From: Escherichia phage EC6098
Reading direction: 5' to 3' (one strand)
DNA: 4,526 nt
Sequence record: MT185428
Below the pieces are notes generated by a model that did not search any database, was not told where the DNA came from, and worked only from the letters and a program-made list of their open reading frames with translations. Every line of letters begins with the position of its first letter. Position 1 is the first letter of the stretch. Positions 1-4,526 of the stretch are shown piece by piece. A program made the position numbers and the translations under genes.

Positions 1-1
1 C

Positions 2-29
2 GTTAAACTAAATATACATTATGCGCACT
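2..29 (-). other. dif-like XerC/XerD recombination motif (candidate attachment site), reverse orientation relative to canonical E. coli dif
   Basis: Plus strand 2-29 is GTTAAACTAAATATACATTATGCGCACT. The reverse complement of E. coli dif (GGTGCGCATAA-TGTATA-TTATGTTAAAT, recalled from memory) is ATTTAACATAATATACATTATGCGCACC. By hand alignment: XerC arm 10/11, central hexamer 6/6, XerD arm 7/11, total 23/28. Confidence 0.5.
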
Positions 30-41
30 AAGGTGCGCATA
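20..41. repeat. Perfect 9-bp inverted repeat TATGCGCAC-(TAAG)-GTGCGCATA; duplicates the XerC-arm-like sequence in inverted orientation
   Basis: Positions 20-28 (TATGCGCAC) are the exact reverse complement of 33-41 (GTGCGCATA), with a 4-nt spacer. The repeat overlaps the dif-like motif and lies just upstream of the Rep ribosome-binding site. Confidence 0.9.
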
Positions 42-62
42 TGCGTATTCTGGAGGTGTGTC

Positions 63-926
63 ATGGCTTGTACCCGTCCTTTGAACGCGTACCAGATGCC
101 ATCGGGGAAGATTTTTTTCACGCCGTCACGTGGCGCTAAATTCATTCAGTTGCCCTGCGGTCAGTGCATCGGTTGCCGTCTTGCTCATTCTCGTGACTGG
201 GCGACCCGCTGCGTTCATGAAGCCCACATGCACGATCACAATTGTTTTATCACCCTGACTTATTCGCCTGAGAATTTACCTGAAGGCGGTACTCTCGTTC
301 GTAAACATTTCACCGATTTTATGAAGCGTTTGCGTAAGGCTTTGGCTGTTGATGATATTTCGATTCGTTTTTTTGGCTGTGGTGAATATGGCTCTAAATT
401 AGAGCGACCGCATTATCACGCGATTATTTTTGGATATGACTTTCCGGATAAGACATTACACAAGGCTGGAAGATTTAATTTATATAGGTCTTCGCTTCTT
501 GAAAGATGTTGGACTTTTGGTTGGTCTGTTGTTGCTGCTTTTAGTTTTGAGTCGGCTGCTTACGTGGCGCGATACTGTGTTAAAAAAGTCACCGGTTCCC
601 GTGCAGATGAGCATTATGGACATCGCATACCCGAGTTTTCGGCTATGAGCAACAGGCCTGGTATTGGCTATGATTTTTTTATGGAATATTACGATGACAT
701 AGTTAATTCAGATGCGTGTATTGGTCGCGGCGGTCGTCAGATAAAACCGCCCCGCTATTATGACAAGTTATTATCAGGCTGTGATTTTGAGAAGTTGCAG
801 CAAAATAAAGAACGCCGACAGTTAAATGCCCAGGTATTAGACCCGTGGCGTTTGCAGGATTTGGATAAATTTAATCTGGTTAAATTCCAGCGAATGATGA
901 GGAAATTAGAAAATGGCTCACTCTGA
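63..926 (+). CDS. VP4: Rolling-circle replication initiation protein (HUH endonuclease, Microviridae VP4 / phiX174 gpA-like)
   Basis: Carries the three rolling-circle motifs: FITLTY (motif 1), HYHAIIFG (HUH motif 2) and YVARYCVKK (motif 3, two tyrosines spaced like the phiX174 gpA catalytic pair, YVAKYVNKK as recalled). Cys-rich N-terminal segment CGQCIGC...C...HEAHMHDHNC. Start chosen at ATG 63 because GGAGG at 52-56 lies 6 nt upstream. The track's ATG at 21 has no Shine-Dalgarno sequence and sits inside the palindrome, so it is less likely. Confidence 0.9.
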   Translation: MACTRPLNAYQMPSGKIFFTPSRGAKFIQLPCGQCIGCRLAHSRDWATRCVHEAHMHDHNCFITLTYSPENLPEGGTLVRKHFTDFMKRLRKALAVDDISIRFFGCGEYGSKLERPHYHAIIFGYDFPDKTLHKAGRFNLYRSSLLERCWTFGWSVVAAFSFESAAYVARYCVKKVTGSRADEHYGHRIPEFSAMSNRPGIGYDFFMEYYDDIVNSDACIGRGGRQIKPPRYYDKLLSGCDFEKLQQNKERRQLNAQVLDPWRLQDLDKFNLVKFQRMMRKLENGSL

Positions 927-1182
927 TGCAGTTTATGTAATTCACGACAAGCTGATTAATGCTGATGTTTTTATGTTTATGGCCCAGCATGACGGTATTG
1001 CGAAAGGACATTTGCACGCGTTTTGTAACCGTATGCAGCGCACTGATTTTTCGTTGCACCGCGTGACTGCTTATGATTTTGCTGACCAGCAGCTGGTTCC
1101 GGTCGATATTGACCGTGTTTATGTTTGTGAAGCTACTCCGGCGTTCCTGAAGGATTCTGAAGATGCGTACATCGAAGCCTAA
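913..1182 (+). CDS. VP5: Small protein downstream of Rep, VP5-like (possible ssDNA synthesis/packaging accessory protein); function not established
   Basis: 89-aa ORF whose start overlaps the Rep stop by 14 nt (ATG 913, Rep stop 924-926). Same strand and syntenic with gokushovirus VP5. Purine-rich GAGGA about 10 nt upstream. Assignment rests on position and size, not on a recognised motif. Confidence 0.55.
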   Translation: MAHSDAVYVIHDKLINADVFMFMAQHDGIAKGHLHAFCNRMQRTDFSLHRVTAYDFADQQLVPVDIDRVYVCEATPAFLKDSEDAYIEA

Positions 1183-1660
1183 GTTCCATACCCGCTATAA
1201 CCCGCCACCGTCGCCCGGCATCGTGTTTGAAGAACCGACGATGACCCAGCAGCATTTTCGCGACGAGTGCGACATTAACAAGATTGTTGAGCGTGCGATA
1301 AGAACGGGAGACACGACAGTCTTTACCAGTGCTCAACGTGCTGAATTCTACGATGCATCCGCGATTACTGATTACGTGGACGCAATGGCTTTAATTGACG
1401 ACGTTCACGACGACTTTAAGAGCCTGCCGTCCACGATTCGCTCGATGTTTGGTAATAACGTTAAACAGTACGTTGAGTGGATGAGTAATCCAGCAAACTG
1501 GAATCAAGCGCGTGAGCTTGGATTGTTGAGCGGCGGAGAGGTTTCGGCGACCGAACCGAAGGTTCGCGAGTCGGAACCTGCTCCGGCGTCCCCGCGGGAG
1601 CGTTCCGGTGCTGAAATGAATAAAGCACCAGATGCAGGTTCCGAACCTGCCAAAACCTGA
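1163..1660 (+). CDS. VP3: Internal scaffolding-like protein (VP3-like), acidic
   Basis: 165-aa ORF immediately upstream of the capsid gene, overlapping the VP5-like ORF by 20 nt. Acidic, D/E-rich core (DECDINKIVERAIRTGD...DYVDAMALIDDVHDDF) resembling gokushovirus VP3 as recalled. The C-terminal 45 aa are Pro/Ser/Glu-rich and probably disordered. Start is uncertain: an in-frame ATG at 1241 (MTQQHF...) is an alternative. Confidence 0.7.
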   Translation: MRTSKPKFHTRYNPPPSPGIVFEEPTMTQQHFRDECDINKIVERAIRTGDTTVFTSAQRAEFYDASAITDYVDAMALIDDVHDDFKSLPSTIRSMFGNNVKQYVEWMSNPANWNQARELGLLSGGEVSATEPKVRESEPAPASPRERSGAEMNKAPDAGSEPAKT

Positions 1661-1680
1661 AGACGGCTCCGGCCCTTCAG

Positions 1681-1717
1681 CCTGGCACAGCGCCCTACTT
1701 GATGTAACTGTGCCAGG
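1681..1717. repeat. Intergenic hairpin: 10-bp perfect inverted repeat (CCTGGCACAG / CTGTGCCAGG) with a 17-nt loop containing ACTTGAT
   Basis: Positions 1681-1690 are the reverse complement of 1708-1717. Loop 1691-1707 is CGCCCTACTTGATGTAA. Lies in the 157-nt VP3-VP1 intergenic region. No T-tract follows, so it is not an intrinsic terminator. Confidence 0.85.
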
Positions 1718-1729
1718 TGACACCGAAAC

Positions 1730-1757
1730 TTACAGGCGGCTCCCACGAAGCCTGTAA
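1730..1757. repeat. Second intergenic hairpin: 8-bp stem (TTACAGGC / GCCTGTAA) with a 12-nt loop
   Basis: Positions 1730-1737 are the reverse complement of 1750-1757. Followed by AAA rather than a T-tract, so not a classical terminator on either strand. Confidence 0.8.
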
Positions 1758-1759
1758 AA

Positions 1760-1817
1760 AGGTGTCAGTTTATACAGTAGTTTGTATAGTATTTAAACAA
1801 TTCCCTGAGGGGGGTTT
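1760..1817 (+). promoter_or_regulatory. AT-rich leader of the capsid gene with a candidate -10 element (TATAGT, 1785-1790) and G-rich Shine-Dalgarno sequence (GAGGGGGG, 1807-1814)
   Basis: TATAGT matches TATAAT at 5/6 and is preceded by TG at 1783-1784. No convincing -35 hexamer at 17-bp spacing. The Shine-Dalgarno core lies 3-7 nt upstream of ATG 1818. Confidence 0.3.
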
Positions 1818-3518
1818 ATGAGTAAATTCGGTCGTAAAGTACCTAGTAATGCAAAAAGTCAGCATAATTTTTCAGTAATCCCGAGTGCCAATATTCAGCG
1901 TTCGGTCTTTAACCGCAGCTCTGGTTATAAAACCACTTTTGACGCTGGTTATTTGATTCCCGTGTTTCTGGATGAGGCTTTGCCGGGTGATACGTTCCAC
2001 CTGAAAACGTCCGTACTGGCGCGTTTATCCACGCCAGTGGTGCCGTTTATGGATAACCTGCGACTGGACATCCAGTATTTTTCCGTGCCCTACCGTCTGG
2101 TCTGGGATAACTGGCAGAAGTTCAACGGTGAGCAGAAGAATCCAGGCGATTCGACGGATTACCTTATCCCGCAGATTAAAGCCCCTGCAGGCGGCTTCCC
2201 TGTAGGCTCCCTTGCCGATTATTTTGGTGTTCCCACAGGTGTGGAGAATATCAGTGTAAGCGCTCTGCCGTTCCGCGCTTATAACCTGATTTATAACGAG
2301 TGGTATCGTGATGAAAACCTGATTAATTCCGCCCCGCTTCCGCTTGGCGATGAGGAAGAAACAGGCCTCGCCAATTTCCCGCTGCGTAAGCGTGCCAAGC
2401 GTCACGATTACTTCACAAGTGCCCTGCCGTGGCCTCAGAAAGGTGAAGGCGTTGAGATTGGTTTAGGCGTTCCGCCGTCGTATACGCTGGAGTACCCTTA
2501 TTACAAGGAAGGTATGGGATTTATTTCGTCTAACTATGGTGCGTCTGGAAATATTGGTCGTACTTTTCCGACGTATATTGCTCGTAGTAGTGTTGGTGAT
2601 GATTCTTCATCTAACATTGGTAATGCTGCTTATTTTTCCGAAGGCCTGGAGAATGGTATTAATTTTCCGAATGCTCCGGCTCGTGGTCGCTATGATGTGC
2701 TTGGTGGTTTTGACCCCAATACACCTCCGGTTACGTTGAAGAAAGAAGGTGGTGAAGTTGTTGATAACCTCACGATTAACTCGCTGCGTCAGGCGTTCCA
2801 GCTTCAGCGGCTGCTTGAGCGTGATGCTCGCGGTGGTACGCGATACATTGAGATTATTCGCAGTCATTTTGGCGTCATTTCTCCTGATGCCCGTGTTCAG
2901 CGTCCTGAGTATCTTGGCTCTGGTTCGTTCGATATAAATATTAATCCCGTTCTTCAAAACTCCGCGACTACCGACGCCAGTCCGCAAGGTAACCTTGCCG
3001 CTTATGGCGTTTCAGGAGGTGTTAACCGTGGTTTTTCTCACTCTTTTGTTGAGCATTGCTTTGTTATTGGCCTTGTCTCCGTTCGAGCAGATTTGACCTA
3101 CCAGCAAGGCATTCCGCGCATGTTCTCCCGTCAGACCCGCTTTGATTTCTACTGGCCTGCACTGGCCCACCTGGGCGAACAGGCTATTCTTAACAAAGAG
3201 ATTTATGCGCAAGGTAACGCCAAGGATGATGAAGTCTTTGGCTACCAGGAACGTTATGCGGAGTACCGCTACCGACCGTCCCAGATTACTGGTAAATTGC
3301 GTTCTACCGACCCGCAATCCCTCGACGTGTGGCATTTAGCCCAGCGGTTCGACTCTCTGCCCGCACTGAATCAGGAGTTTATCGAGGAGAATCCACCGAT
3401 GAAGCGCGTTCTCGCCGTACAGGACGAACCCCAGTTCATCATGGATGCGTTCTTTGACCTGAAGTGTGTGCGGCCTATGCCTGTTTACTCAGTACCAGGT
3501 CTTATTGACCATTTCTAA
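1818..3518 (+). CDS. VP1: Major capsid protein (Microviridae VP1 / F-like)
   Basis: 566-aa ORF with strong Shine-Dalgarno sequence. N-terminus MSKFGRK...FSVIPSANIQRSVFNRS...FDAGYLIPVF and the central block LRQAFQLQRLLERDARGGTRYIEIIRSHFGV are characteristic of Microviridae capsid proteins as recalled. A Gly/Ser/Asn-rich insertion at roughly aa 210-315 is consistent with the gokushovirus surface loop. Confidence 0.95.
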   Translation: MSKFGRKVPSNAKSQHNFSVIPSANIQRSVFNRSSGYKTTFDAGYLIPVFLDEALPGDTFHLKTSVLARLSTPVVPFMDNLRLDIQYFSVPYRLVWDNWQKFNGEQKNPGDSTDYLIPQIKAPAGGFPVGSLADYFGVPTGVENISVSALPFRAYNLIYNEWYRDENLINSAPLPLGDEEETGLANFPLRKRAKRHDYFTSALPWPQKGEGVEIGLGVPPSYTLEYPYYKEGMGFISSNYGASGNIGRTFPTYIARSSVGDDSSSNIGNAAYFSEGLENGINFPNAPARGRYDVLGGFDPNTPPVTLKKEGGEVVDNLTINSLRQAFQLQRLLERDARGGTRYIEIIRSHFGVISPDARVQRPEYLGSGSFDININPVLQNSATTDASPQGNLAAYGVSGGVNRGFSHSFVEHCFVIGLVSVRADLTYQQGIPRMFSRQTRFDFYWPALAHLGEQAILNKEIYAQGNAKDDEVFGYQERYAEYRYRPSQITGKLRSTDPQSLDVWHLAQRFDSLPALNQEFIEENPPMKRVLAVQDEPQFIMDAFFDLKCVRPMPVYSVPGLIDHF

Positions 3519-3535
3519 GTTACATTGTCACTTTT

Positions 3536-3558
3536 GGCCTCTGCGGAGGCCTTTTTTT
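3536..3558 (+). terminator. Rho-independent terminator between the capsid and pilot genes
   Basis: GGCCTC-(TGCG)-GAGGCC forms a perfect 6-bp GC-rich stem (3536-3541 / 3546-3551) with a 4-nt loop, followed by seven T residues (3552-3558). Begins 18 nt after the capsid stop codon (3516-3518). Confidence 0.8.
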
Positions 3559-3572
3559 CATGAGGTGAAATT

Positions 3573-4352
3573 ATGGGCTTTTTATCATCTGCCGTTGGTG
3601 CTGTTGGTTCCATTGCCGGTTCTCTTCTCGGTGCCCACTCTGCCCAGCAGAACGCCGCACAGGCGAACAAGTTAACGATGGATTTGGCCAAAAACGGTAT
3701 GCAGTACCGCGTACAGGATTTGCGAAAAGCTGGTCTTAACCCGATTCTGGCCGTTACTGGTTCCGGTGGTCTTGGTTCCGTCAGTTCGTCAGGTATTCAG
3801 GCCGCCCAGCCTGCCGATTTCTCAGGAGTGGTTAATTCTGCGGTTAGCGTATTTGACGCCTTAACGCGCCGTCAGCAGCAGGAAGTTGCCCGTGAAGGCA
3901 TCATGTCTCAGATTGCGTTACAACGTAACCAGATTGCGAATAGCGCGGCTGATGTGAAGCTTAAAGAGGCTCAGGCTGCCCAGGCTATCCAGAGTGCCGA
4001 TAACATGCGATCGCAGTCGAATCTGATTAATCAGCAGGTTTTGACCGAGGCTTCCCGCCGTGCCAATATTGAATCTCAGACAGGCCTTAATTCTGCACAG
4101 CGGATTAGAACACAGTATCAAACTATGCAGGATAAGGTTATTCATGACTATTTACAGACTGATGCCGGTAAGGCTTCTACGGTAGGTTCTTATGATGCAA
4201 AATCTGGCGGGCTTCCAGCTCTTGGTAATTATATTTTTGGTGCTGGCGCTCGTTTCTTTGGTGATAAAAGTTCTGCGAAAGCGGTAAGCAAGGGGGGACG
4301 CCTCCCCCCTAACCAGTTCCAGCAGCAATTGATTAACAACTATAGGAGGTAA
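3573..4352 (+). CDS. VP2: DNA pilot / minor capsid protein (VP2-like, functional analogue of phiX174 H)
   Basis: 259-aa ORF with Shine-Dalgarno GAGGTG (3562-3567) 5 nt upstream. Gly/Ala/Ser-rich hydrophobic N-terminus (MGFLSSAVGAVGSIAGSLLGA) followed by a long Gln/Ala-rich, probably coiled-coil segment. Sits directly after the capsid gene, as in gokushoviruses. Confidence 0.75.
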   Translation: MGFLSSAVGAVGSIAGSLLGAHSAQQNAAQANKLTMDLAKNGMQYRVQDLRKAGLNPILAVTGSGGLGSVSSSGIQAAQPADFSGVVNSAVSVFDALTRRQQQEVAREGIMSQIALQRNQIANSAADVKLKEAQAAQAIQSADNMRSQSNLINQQVLTEASRRANIESQTGLNSAQRIRTQYQTMQDKVIHDYLQTDAGKASTVGSYDAKSGGLPALGNYIFGAGARFFGDKSSAKAVSKGGRLPPNQFQQQLINNYRR

Positions 4353-4354
4353 TT

Positions 4355-4474
4355 ATGGCTCGTTCTCGCCGTCGTATGTCTAAGCGTTCTTCCCGTCGTT
4401 CGTTCCGTAAGTACGCAAAGACGCATAAACGTAACTTTAAAGCCCGCTCCATGCGTGGCGGCATTCGTCTTTGA
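4355..4474 (+). CDS. Small arginine-rich DNA-binding/packaging protein (phiX174 J-like; gokushovirus small basic ORF)
   Basis: Hand translation gives MARSRRRMSKRSSRRSFRKYAKTHKRNFKARSMRGGIRL (39 aa, roughly 45 percent Arg/Lys), ending at TGA 4472-4474. Consensus AGGAGG at 4344-4349 lies 5 nt upstream of ATG 4355. The start is 2 nt past the VP2 stop codon. Not in the supplied ORF track, presumably because of a length cutoff. Confidence 0.75.
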   Translation: MARSRRRMSKRSSRRSFRKYAKTHKRNFKARSMRGGIRL

Positions 4475-4504
4475 TTGACAAAGTTGATCGTAACGATCTA
4501 TGAT
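4475..4504 (+). promoter_or_regulatory. Candidate sigma70 promoter reading rightward across the window end (toward Rep if the genome is circular)
   Basis: Perfect -35 TTGACA at 4475-4480, an 18-bp spacer, then -10 TATGAT at 4499-4504 (5/6 to TATAAT). Predicted transcription start near 4511. Located immediately after the small basic ORF stop codon. Confidence 0.5.
4486..4498. repeat. Short palindrome GATCG-TAA-CGATC containing two GATC (Dam) sites, within the promoter spacer
   Basis: Positions 4486-4490 (GATCG) are the reverse complement of 4494-4498 (CGATC). Lies between the -35 and -10 elements of the candidate promoter. Confidence 0.6.
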
Positions 4505-4526
4505 AATTATCGTAAGTCGTTGTTTT

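Follow-up and report, generated by a model that had tools for sequence, protein, structure and literature searches.

The window, by which we mean the whole 4,526-nucleotide stretch that was analyzed (Escherichia phage EC6098, sequence record MT185428), is a complete 4.5-kb gokushovirus of the E. coli type with all genes on the plus strand (Table 1). Prophages that are 86-94% identical to the window are present in seven E. coli chromosomes, and hipA adjoins the prophage in all five E. coli chromosomes that we examined. A dif-like site lies at the start of the window, and hybrid phage/bacterial dif junctions are present in the prophages. These prophage and dif features agree with the enterogokushoviruses described in PMC7062461, which mentions neither an origin nor a hairpin. 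The terminator-like site of the window, identified by a terminator scan, is located at 3536-3551.

Table 1. Genes and sequence features of the window
Feature	Position	Strand	Remarks
Rep/VP4 gene	63-926	+	HUH endonuclease; Pfam PF23343, E = 1.4e-20
VP5	913-1182	+	
VP3 internal scaffolding gene	1163-1660	+	Pfam Chlamy_scaf, E = 5e-34
VP3-VP1 spacer	1661-1817		157 nt; largest noncoding stretch of the window
Hairpin 0 (CTGAAG...CTTCAG)	1657-1680	+	Abuts hairpin 1 on its 5' side
Hairpin 1, candidate plus-strand origin	1681-1717	+	10-bp stem, 17-nt loop
Loop core CTACTTGAT	1695-1703	+	Best core-matrix site of the window
Predicted Rep nick	G1701/A1702	+	Inferred by analogy with phiX174 G4305/A4306
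TGACACC box	1718-1724	+	Candidate Rep-binding part of the origin; no binding data
Hairpin 2, composite	1718-1767	+	Outer stem 1718-1724/1761-1767; inner stem 1730-1737/1750-1757
VP1 capsid	1818-3518	+	
VP2	3573-4352	+	
Small basic protein	4356-4473	+	

Three hairpins, numbered 0 to 2 here, tile positions 1657-1767 without gaps, the most upstream of them overlapping the VP3 stop codon (1658-1660). In hairpin 1, the arm CCTGGCACAG (1681-1690) is perfectly paired with CTGTGCCAGG (1708-1717) around the loop CGCCCTACTTGATGTAA. Folded as single-stranded DNA, hairpin 1 has an energy of -10.1 kcal/mol (z = -4.22), which none of 200 shuffles equaled. Hairpin 2 folds at -11.4 kcal/mol (z = -3.99) and consists of an inner stem of 8 bp within an outer stem, TGACACC/GGTGTCA, that starts directly 3' of hairpin 1. 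When positions 1650-1820 were folded as one region, the z score was -4.48. An Rfam scan of the window gave a single match, a chance-level snoRNA elsewhere in the sequence (E = 0.99).

A preceding sequence-only reading of this locus had proposed that a perfect 10-bp stem at 1681-1717 encloses a 17-nt loop displaying the heptamer ACTTGAT, and that this motif sits in a hairpin loop in the largest noncoding region. Both statements held, with coordinates and sequence unchanged. The second hairpin that had been described, at 1730-1757, is also real and forms the core of a larger structure, hairpin 2, as its inner stem. The gap of 12 nt that was said to separate the two hairpins had to be corrected, since those 12 nt hold the conserved TGACACC box, which forms the outer stem of hairpin 2. 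The claim that neither hairpin is a terminator stood: there is no T-tract, and neither structure was terminator-like in the terminator scan of the window. The likeness of the heptamer to the phiX174 origin was a weaker point. ACTTGAT is present as a single copy in the window (1697-1703), but this is the chance level, with 0.58 copies expected and at least one copy in 88 of 200 shuffles. The heptamer alone is thus not significant, and the idea was rescued by comparison with relatives.

A megablast search of the whole genome against phage records returned one close relative and three otherwise unalignable microviruses, in which the match was confined to a stretch of unannotated DNA within 1677-1724 (44-48 nt). 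Across this element of ~45 nt, identity to the window was 92-96%, although the Rep proteins of these genomes share only 41-45% identity with that of the window, and in the one of these three genomes that was compared for VP1, the capsid protein was 50% identical. A BLASTN search with the 51-nt element matched 276 phage records, and all listed organism names were those of microviruses. Among plasmid records, only 2 of 72,556 matched. One is an E. coli record of 4.5 kb, as long as a gokushovirus genome, and the other is a Citrobacter plasmid of 171 kb; neither record was examined. The exact 14-mer CTACTTGATGTAAC was found in >120 IMG/VR contigs, of which ~90 are microviruses of 4-5.5 kb that carry the 14-mer inside a hairpin. 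A few contigs contain two such hairpins in the same orientation, an arrangement that would be awkward for a functional origin unless these contigs are chimeras.

To avoid selection on the motif, we assembled an unbiased sample of 80 genomes chosen only by conserved Rep peptides. A hairpin-aware scan detected the element in 74 of these 80 genomes when the criteria were strict and in 78 when they were relaxed. It was also present in all four cultured gokushoviruses examined (Chp1, Chp2, phiMH2K, and SpV4), the hosts of which are Chlamydia, Bdellovibrio, and Spiroplasma, although their stem sequences are unrelated. Written as 5' arm, loop, 3' arm, and following sequence, the element reads CTAGCGTATAACAG, t-CTACTTGAT, CTGTTATACGCTAG, and gtgatagc in Chp2; AGTTCGGCTAC, ggacc-CTACTTGTT-gtaa, GTAGCCGAACT, and cacag in phiMH2K; TGGGGCATAT, a-TTACTTGTT-ata, ATATGCCCCA, and ttgacgac in SpV4; and GGGCTATAT, CCTCTTGGC-t, ATATAGCCC, and gagcgacac in Chp1. 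In almost all genomes, the element lies directly 3' of VP3, whatever the gene order. The two common orders are VP4-VP5-VP1-VP2-VP3-element and VP4-VP5-VP3-element-VP1-VP2, the latter being that of the window, and such rearrangements are explained if VP3 and the putative origin move as a single block.

Two candidates from outside this group were considered and set aside. A match in an Eel River "pequenovirus" was rejected as evidence for the element beyond gokushoviruses, since the capsid protein of this virus is 50% identical to that of the window and only weakly similar to phiX174 F. In the Amoyvirinae (Ruegeria phage DSS3-P22), there was a weak antisense candidate inside a gene, for which we make no claim.

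We next consider how the element varies. In an alignment of 77 sequences, all 14 stem pairs had changed on both sides. Cells with such two-sided changes numbered 180, compared to 73.5 in shuffles, and none of 500 shuffles reached 180; the covariation score was 0.381, compared to 0.149 in shuffles and no more than 0.131 in slid controls. G-T was almost absent from the central stem pairs. That these pairs almost never pass through G-T would be expected of a DNA hairpin and not of an RNA hairpin. The inner pairs covary too (e.g., GTAAC/GTTAC, TCAAC/GTTGA, and ACAAC/GTTGT), indicating that the loop shrinks to a core of 8-9 nt in many genomes.

This loop core, NNACTTGAT, is nearly invariant. In the pattern N-N-A-C-T-T-G-A-T, positions C4, T5, T6, G7, and T9 are 92-98% conserved, while A3 and A8 are conserved at 85% each, and G-T-A-A is usually found directly 3' of the core. 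Further 3' follows a box with the consensus (A/G)(C/G)TGACA(C)(C), in which T, G, A, C, and A are each 96-98% conserved. The distance from core position 1 to the G of the box is 25 nt in 59 of the 77 elements and 26 nt in another 16, regardless of the sequence of the stem. Core variants visibly track Rep clades, but we dropped this observation as evidence because vertical descent predicts the same pattern.

The hairpins on either side of hairpin 1 are variable in sequence and recurrent in structure. A stem of at least 6 bp with the box as its 5' arm was found in 52% of genomes, compared to 4% of shuffles, and an upstream hairpin of at least 6 bp was found in 40% of genomes, again compared to 4% of shuffles. 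Among E. coli prophages, the pairing of the inner stem of hairpin 2 is kept via compensatory changes, and hairpin 0 of strain C5 shows a compensatory change to CTGCAG/CTGCAG. The TGACAC box and the recurrent hairpin 2 are good candidates for an adjacent Rep-binding sequence, but there are no binding data. More generally, hairpins 0 and 2 might serve in Rep binding, complementary-strand priming, or termination, roles that we could not separate here; for hairpin 0, it is conceivable that it is a terminator or a complementary-strand origin.

For comparison with phiX174 and G4, we derived a weight matrix from gokushovirus cores only and scanned both strands. In the window, the matrix scored 22.1 bits at 1695 and 7.6 bits at the next best position, and there was no second core-matrix site in the window, the Rep gene included. 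On phiX174, the mapped origin ranked first of 10,772 positions, with 12.8 bits compared to 6.4 for the next position. On G4, the site with the same 30-nt origin sequence ranked first of 11,154 positions (12.6 versus 9.0 bits). A score of 12.8 bits was reached somewhere in 13% of shuffled phiX174 genomes, and the significance of this result therefore rests on the coincidence of the best match with a prespecified mapped origin and not on the score.

When the box was included in the matrix, the phiX174 score dropped from 12.8 to 7.2 bits, and the origin still ranked first. A score of 7.2 bits is not significant, given that the maximum in shuffled sequences was 2.3 +/- 3.7 and ranged up to 14. Given this drop, the case for homology in the 3' part of the origin amounts to three bases in register and is suggestive at most, and we do not claim homology of the box. 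The register is as follows: with the first core base as position 1, the G of the box in the window is position 25, GAC starts at position 25 of the 30-nt phiX174 origin, and the core-to-GAC distance in gokushoviruses is 25-26 nt. In one gokushovirus, L168, the loop is CAACTTGATATTAAC, which begins with the same 14 nt as the phiX174 origin.

The putative cognate enzymes also resemble each other. The Rep protein encoded in the window contains the motifs PHYHAIIF and AAYVARYCVKK, the latter with Tyr167 and Tyr171. BLASTP aligned it with phiX174 protein A (E = 1e-5) across motifs 1-2, pairing FITLTY with FDTLTL, EYGSKLERPHYHAIIF with EYGTANGRLHFHAVHF, and PHYHAIIF with LHFHAVHF. A motif search revealed a tyrosine motif that is common to both proteins, AAYVARYCVKK in Rep and GFYVAKYVNKK in protein A, and Y343 and Y347 of the latter are the catalytic tyrosines of protein A.

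The orientation of the element relative to the genes is not fixed. The coding strand was unambiguous in 141 genomes. In 22 of these (~16%), hairpin 1, the box, and hairpin 2 lay together, as one module, on the strand opposite to that of all genes. Inverted modules occur in three GenBank genomes that originate from separate studies (MH992184, ON111452, and MG945591). The first of these records is Apis mellifera associated microvirus 13, and the second is Microvirus AZ-2020. Based on a Rep tree of 142 genomes, orientation has changed at least seven times independently.

An initial comparison of strand skew in 70 genomes showed too much overlap to be decisive and was replaced by a larger sample and by sister-clade contrasts. 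In the larger sample, the coding-strand AT skew averaged +0.37 (standard deviation [sd] 0.06) in genomes with an inverted module and +0.01 (sd 0.17) in genomes with the normal orientation, and none of 118 normal genomes reached the median skew of the inverted group. The contrasts were drawn on a rough neighbor-joining Rep tree that ignores recombination. In all seven, the inverted clade had the higher coding-strand AT skew (+0.02 to +0.45, mean +0.25), corresponding to a p value of ~0.008 in a one-sided sign test (our own calculation). The motif-bearing strand is T-rich in phiX174 and in the window, and the shift in skew is what would be expected if this strand spends time single-stranded and becomes T-enriched. 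From the link between orientation and composition, we infer that the orientation of the element seems to determine which strand is displaced and packaged, as expected of a plus-strand origin.

Taken together, sequence and comparison show the structure of the element, its conservation, the similarity of its core to that of phiX174, the motifs of the Rep protein, and the link between orientation and composition. What we infer from these results is that hairpin 1 most likely serves rolling-circle replication as the plus-strand (leading-strand, double-strand) origin; cleavage has not been shown. The element and the 30-nt phiX174 origin are apparently homologous, although only the former is displayed in a hairpin. 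We found no cleavage, nick-mapping, or replication experiment for any gokushovirus in the searchable literature.

A putative mechanism follows by analogy with phiX174. The inverted repeat formed by 1681-1690 and 1708-1717 would extrude in the supercoiled replicative form, or fold in the displaced strand, and extrusion would expose the loop as single-stranded DNA. Rep (VP4), an HUH enzyme with a Y-x-x-x-Y motif like that of protein A, is predicted to recognize the core CTACTTG/AT (the slash marks the nick) together with the TGACACC box, at a distance of 25 nt from the first core position. It would then nick between G1701 and A1702 and become covalently joined to the 5' end, leaving a 3'-OH that may prime leading-strand synthesis. 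After one round, the second tyrosine would cleave and ligate the hairpin regenerated in the displaced strand, and a circular single strand would be released and packaged as it is made, as in phiX174. Under this mechanism, the motif-bearing strand would be the packaged strand, which in the window is the coding strand.

These results also bear on the remaining claims of the sequence-only reading. The phiX174 origin that it gave, CAACTTG/ATATTAATAACACTATAGACCAC, was correct (the rep_origin is annotated at 4306, inside gene A), and the proposed resemblance to phiX174 held in a formal test, since the matrix built from gokushovirus loops placed the phiX174 and G4 origins at rank 1. It had stated that a lack of conservation of hairpin and heptamer among relatives would refute the proposal, but the outcome was the opposite, as both are nearly universal in gokushoviruses. 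A nick site inside the Rep gene had been named as another possible refutation, and the core matrix found no matching site there in the window. The claim itself had been worded as a rolling-circle origin or a packaging signal. The first half is supported as a strong inference without an experiment that shows cleavage; the second, as a role of its own, is a conjecture from sequence.

The main alternative is that hairpin 1 is a complementary-strand (minus-strand, single-strand) origin that is read by host primase, PriA, or RNA polymerase, modeled on the G4 complementary-strand origin and the phiX174 primosome assembly site. In its favor, hairpin 1 is a stable hairpin of the viral strand in the largest intergenic region, and the minus-strand origins of phiX174 and G4 are intergenic hairpins. 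In addition, conserved hairpins have been reported in two other clades of small microviruses and were tentatively tied to minus-strand synthesis (PMC9865509), and such a role would likewise allow the module to be inverted along with the packaged strand. However, phages of Chlamydia, Spiroplasma, Bdellovibrio, and E. coli show almost no variation in the loop, even though the priming machineries of these hosts differ, whereas the minus-strand origins that are known vary even from phiX174 to G4. The partner that all of these phages have conserved is their own Rep and not a host protein, and the core matches the plus-strand origins of phiX174 and G4 rather than their minus-strand origins. Moreover, a host signal that depends on structure only would be better suited by the sequence-variable hairpins 0 and 2 than by hairpin 1. 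We therefore regard this explanation as very unlikely, while noting that a hairpin in the viral strand could conceivably also, or instead, prime complementary-strand synthesis.

A similarly improbable explanation is that the element is bound by another phage protein and is not nicked. It might then be a signal by which the small basic protein VP8 packages or condenses the DNA, a signal for the VP5 switch protein, or a transcriptional operator. The box at fixed spacing and the palindromic hairpin 2 do resemble a protein-binding site, and the constant place right after VP3 suggests a link to morphogenesis genes. The 3' arm of hairpin 2 also overlaps a weak promoter-like sequence, GTGTCA-17-TATAGT (1762-1790), but we rejected a promoter reading because a 9/12 match is at the chance level (7 sites found versus 5.3 expected). 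Against this explanation, it accounts neither for the match to the phiX174 nick core nor for the orientation-linked shift in composition, and an operator has no need of a single-stranded loop maintained by covariation. Packaging in phiX174 is coupled to origin-dependent strand synthesis, and a separate packaging signal is not known. An RNA-level element, whether a terminator, a hairpin that stabilizes mRNA, or a site at which processing separates the VP3 message from that of VP1, can be all but ruled out. It would fit the location between two genes on the transcribed strand, and intergenic regions of phiX174 hold terminator hairpins. Yet the hairpin has no T-tract and is not terminator-like by the scan, a terminator gives no reason for a conserved loop sequence, the central pairs almost never change via G-U intermediates, and no Rfam family matched. 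Furthermore, because the module is on the antisense strand in 22 of the 141 genomes, where a transcript would carry the complementary loop, an RNA-level role of the loop is unlikely.

The plus-strand origin reading has a bolder extension, for which the arguments on either side seem to us evenly balanced. If the module sets the displaced and packaged strand, a recurrent minority of gokushoviruses would package the antisense strand, and, in the same reading, the 30-nt origin of phiX174 would be a derived form. It would correspond to the loop, 3' stem arm, and box of an ancestral hairpin, the 5' arm of which was lost on absorption into gene A. Microviridae are thought to be uniformly positive-sense. 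The family is not known to package the antisense strand, and this counts against the origin reading of the inverted genomes. Inverted modules predict virion DNA of the opposite polarity; if this is true, the phages that carry them are negative-sense single-stranded DNA (ssDNA) phages, and a textbook property of the family would change.

We found no description of the gokushovirus origin, of its hairpin form compared to phiX174, or of the inverted state in the searchable literature, but older closed-access papers on SpV4, Chp1, Chp2, and phiMH2K were outside our search, and an earlier mention is possible. A literature search with the motif as a text string returned only primers. In viromes from the gut and the environment, few ssDNA phages are as abundant as gokushoviruses. 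For the annotation of thousands of metagenomic genomes, the putative origin module of ~45-110 nt offers a natural zero point and a strand orientation, and it would make it possible to construct minimal replicons, as well as phagemids or transducing vectors, for the cultivable E. coli gokushoviruses. In addition, the phiX174 origin, which has been studied for a long time, would be connected with an older form, the hairpin that is typical of HUH replicons.

With regard to known systems, the proposed origin is of a known kind, a rolling-circle origin of the HUH type in which a hairpin loop carries the nick site (for the framework, see PMC5703833). The trait that characterizes such hairpin origins is present, namely, a conserved loop motif (here 85-98% per core position) on a stem that is kept by compensatory change. 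The origins of CRESS-DNA viruses (geminiviruses, circoviruses, and nanoviruses) likewise have a conserved motif of ~9 nt in the loop of a sequence-variable paired stem, are intergenic, and are cut by an HUH Rep. They differ in that their motif is unrelated and their Reps have one tyrosine and a helicase domain, whereas the Rep of the window has two tyrosines. Ambisense genomes are normal in CRESS-DNA viruses and are not known in Microviridae. In the double-strand origins of rolling-circle plasmids such as pT181 and pMV158, an inverted repeat puts the nick site in a single-stranded loop next to a Rep-binding sequence, and a separate single-strand origin lies nearby (PMC5703833). The nick site of pC194 and pUB110 is CTTGATA, to which the CTTGAT core of the element is similar. 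Here, the differences are that the replicon is a plasmid and not a phage and that the Rep family differs from the PF23343 family of the window. Complementary-strand origins (those of G4 and M13 and the phiX174 PriA site) are viral-strand intergenic hairpins as well, but host proteins recognize them, and conservation does not extend from one phage group to another.

The closest likeness is to the 30-nt origin of phiX174 and G4, which protein A cleaves (at G4305/A4306 in phiX174). The nick-site core is CTACTTG/AT in the window and CAACTTG/AT in these phages, with ACTTGAT identical, and GAC occupies positions 25-27. In phiX174, as in the window, the motif is on the coding strand, and the cognate HUH Reps share the motifs EYG...HxHA and YVA(R/K)Y..KK. 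In contrast to the intergenic element of the window, however, the phiX174 origin lies inside gene A and has an AT-rich spacer, and neither phiX174 nor G4 has a hairpin around the core. The 30-nt unit has the same overall length in both, but the corresponding spacer of the gokushovirus element contains GC and is the 3' half of a covarying stem, paired with a 5' arm, and inclusion of the box lowers the phiX174 score. The box is TGACACC in the window and AGACCAC in phiX174. Finally, in gokushoviruses, a second hairpin usually follows, and the element can take either orientation relative to the genes.

The proposed plus-strand origin module (hairpin 1, the TGACAC box and hairpin 2) is not fixed in its orientation. 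Among the genomes and contigs compared, the entire module and the full set of genes are on opposite strands in L056, L058, L068, L070, L071, L102, L103, L110, L131, L132, L133, L135-L137, L146, L149, L150, L171 and L206, and the same arrangement was found in three GenBank records (see table). These modules usually occupy the unchanged slot after VP3, and at least seven independent flips were counted. The coding-strand AT skew of genomes carrying an inverted module is extreme, at about +0.37.

Some larger contigs (L160, L162 and L139) carry two differing origin-type hairpins in equal orientation. These hint that a block of VP3 plus origin might have been shuffled via the origin. L139, with its two Rep genes, could be a chimera or a heterodimer. 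The origin element was also found in two records labeled as plasmids. The E. coli record is probably a gokushovirus replicative form deposited under a plasmid label, while the Citrobacter element may represent an integrated copy.

Features in the window (EC6098) and in compared records
Feature	Record	Position	Strand or orientation	Context
Origin element	CP057117.1	1472-1522		4,549-bp E. coli "plasmid"
Origin element	NZ_CP053574.1	58983-59029		171-kb Citrobacter plasmid
Inverted module	MH992184 (L217)	587-629	Opposite to all genes	GenBank record
Inverted module	ON111452 (L218)	62-106	Opposite to all genes	GenBank record
Inverted module	MG945591 (L219)	46-86	Opposite to all genes	GenBank record
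Paired origin-type hairpins	L160	4981 and 399	Same orientation	VP3 gene between
Paired origin-type hairpins	L162	5201 and 681	Same orientation	VP3 gene between
Paired origin-type hairpins	L139	95 and 4593	Same orientation	Contig with two Rep genes
Weak origin-like hairpin	L216	about 2190-2225	-	Antisense, within gp03
Strong sigma-70-like promoter, TTGACA-18-TATGAT (11/12)	Window	4475-4504		Upstream of Rep
Textbook intrinsic terminator, GGCCTC-TGCG-GAGGCC then T7	Window	3536-3558		After VP1
Perfect 11-nt inverted repeat, TCGGAACCTGC / GCAGGTTCCGA	Window	1571-1581 / 1634-1644		Inside VP3 gene, 3' end
Palindrome adjoining 11-nt inverted repeat	Window	1634-1650		Inside VP3 gene, 3' end
G-run/C-run palindrome, AGGGGGGA-cgcc-TCCCCCCT	Window	4291-4310		Inside VP2, 3' end
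Dif-like XerCD site, agtGCGCATAATGTATAtttagtttaacg	Window	1-45 plus circular junction with 4474-4526	-	
9-bp palindrome	Window	20-41		Same region as dif-like site

E. coli prophages adjoining hipA have hybrid phage/bacterial dif junctions, from which it follows that the window represents the phage in its excised, circular state. The inverted repeat and palindrome inside VP3 lie just upstream of the hairpin cluster.

No hairpin surrounds the origin core of phiX174 or G4. The single origin-like candidate in the Amoyvirinae phage DSS3-P22 of Ruegeria (L216, MF101922) is a weak hairpin, TCGGGCTT-tCCACTTGTTatctggcgag-AAGCCCGA. Chp1 (L129, NC_001741) has a hairpin with the conserved core CCTCTTGGC at about 2750-2790, between ORF3 and ORF8, which is not among the four "hairpin-like structures" (h1-h4) of its GenBank annotation. 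In the gokushovirus L168 (around 2226-2270), the stem includes ATTAAC paired with GTTAAT and the loop is CAACTTGATATTAAC. The opening 14 nt of this loop match those of the phiX174 origin exactly.
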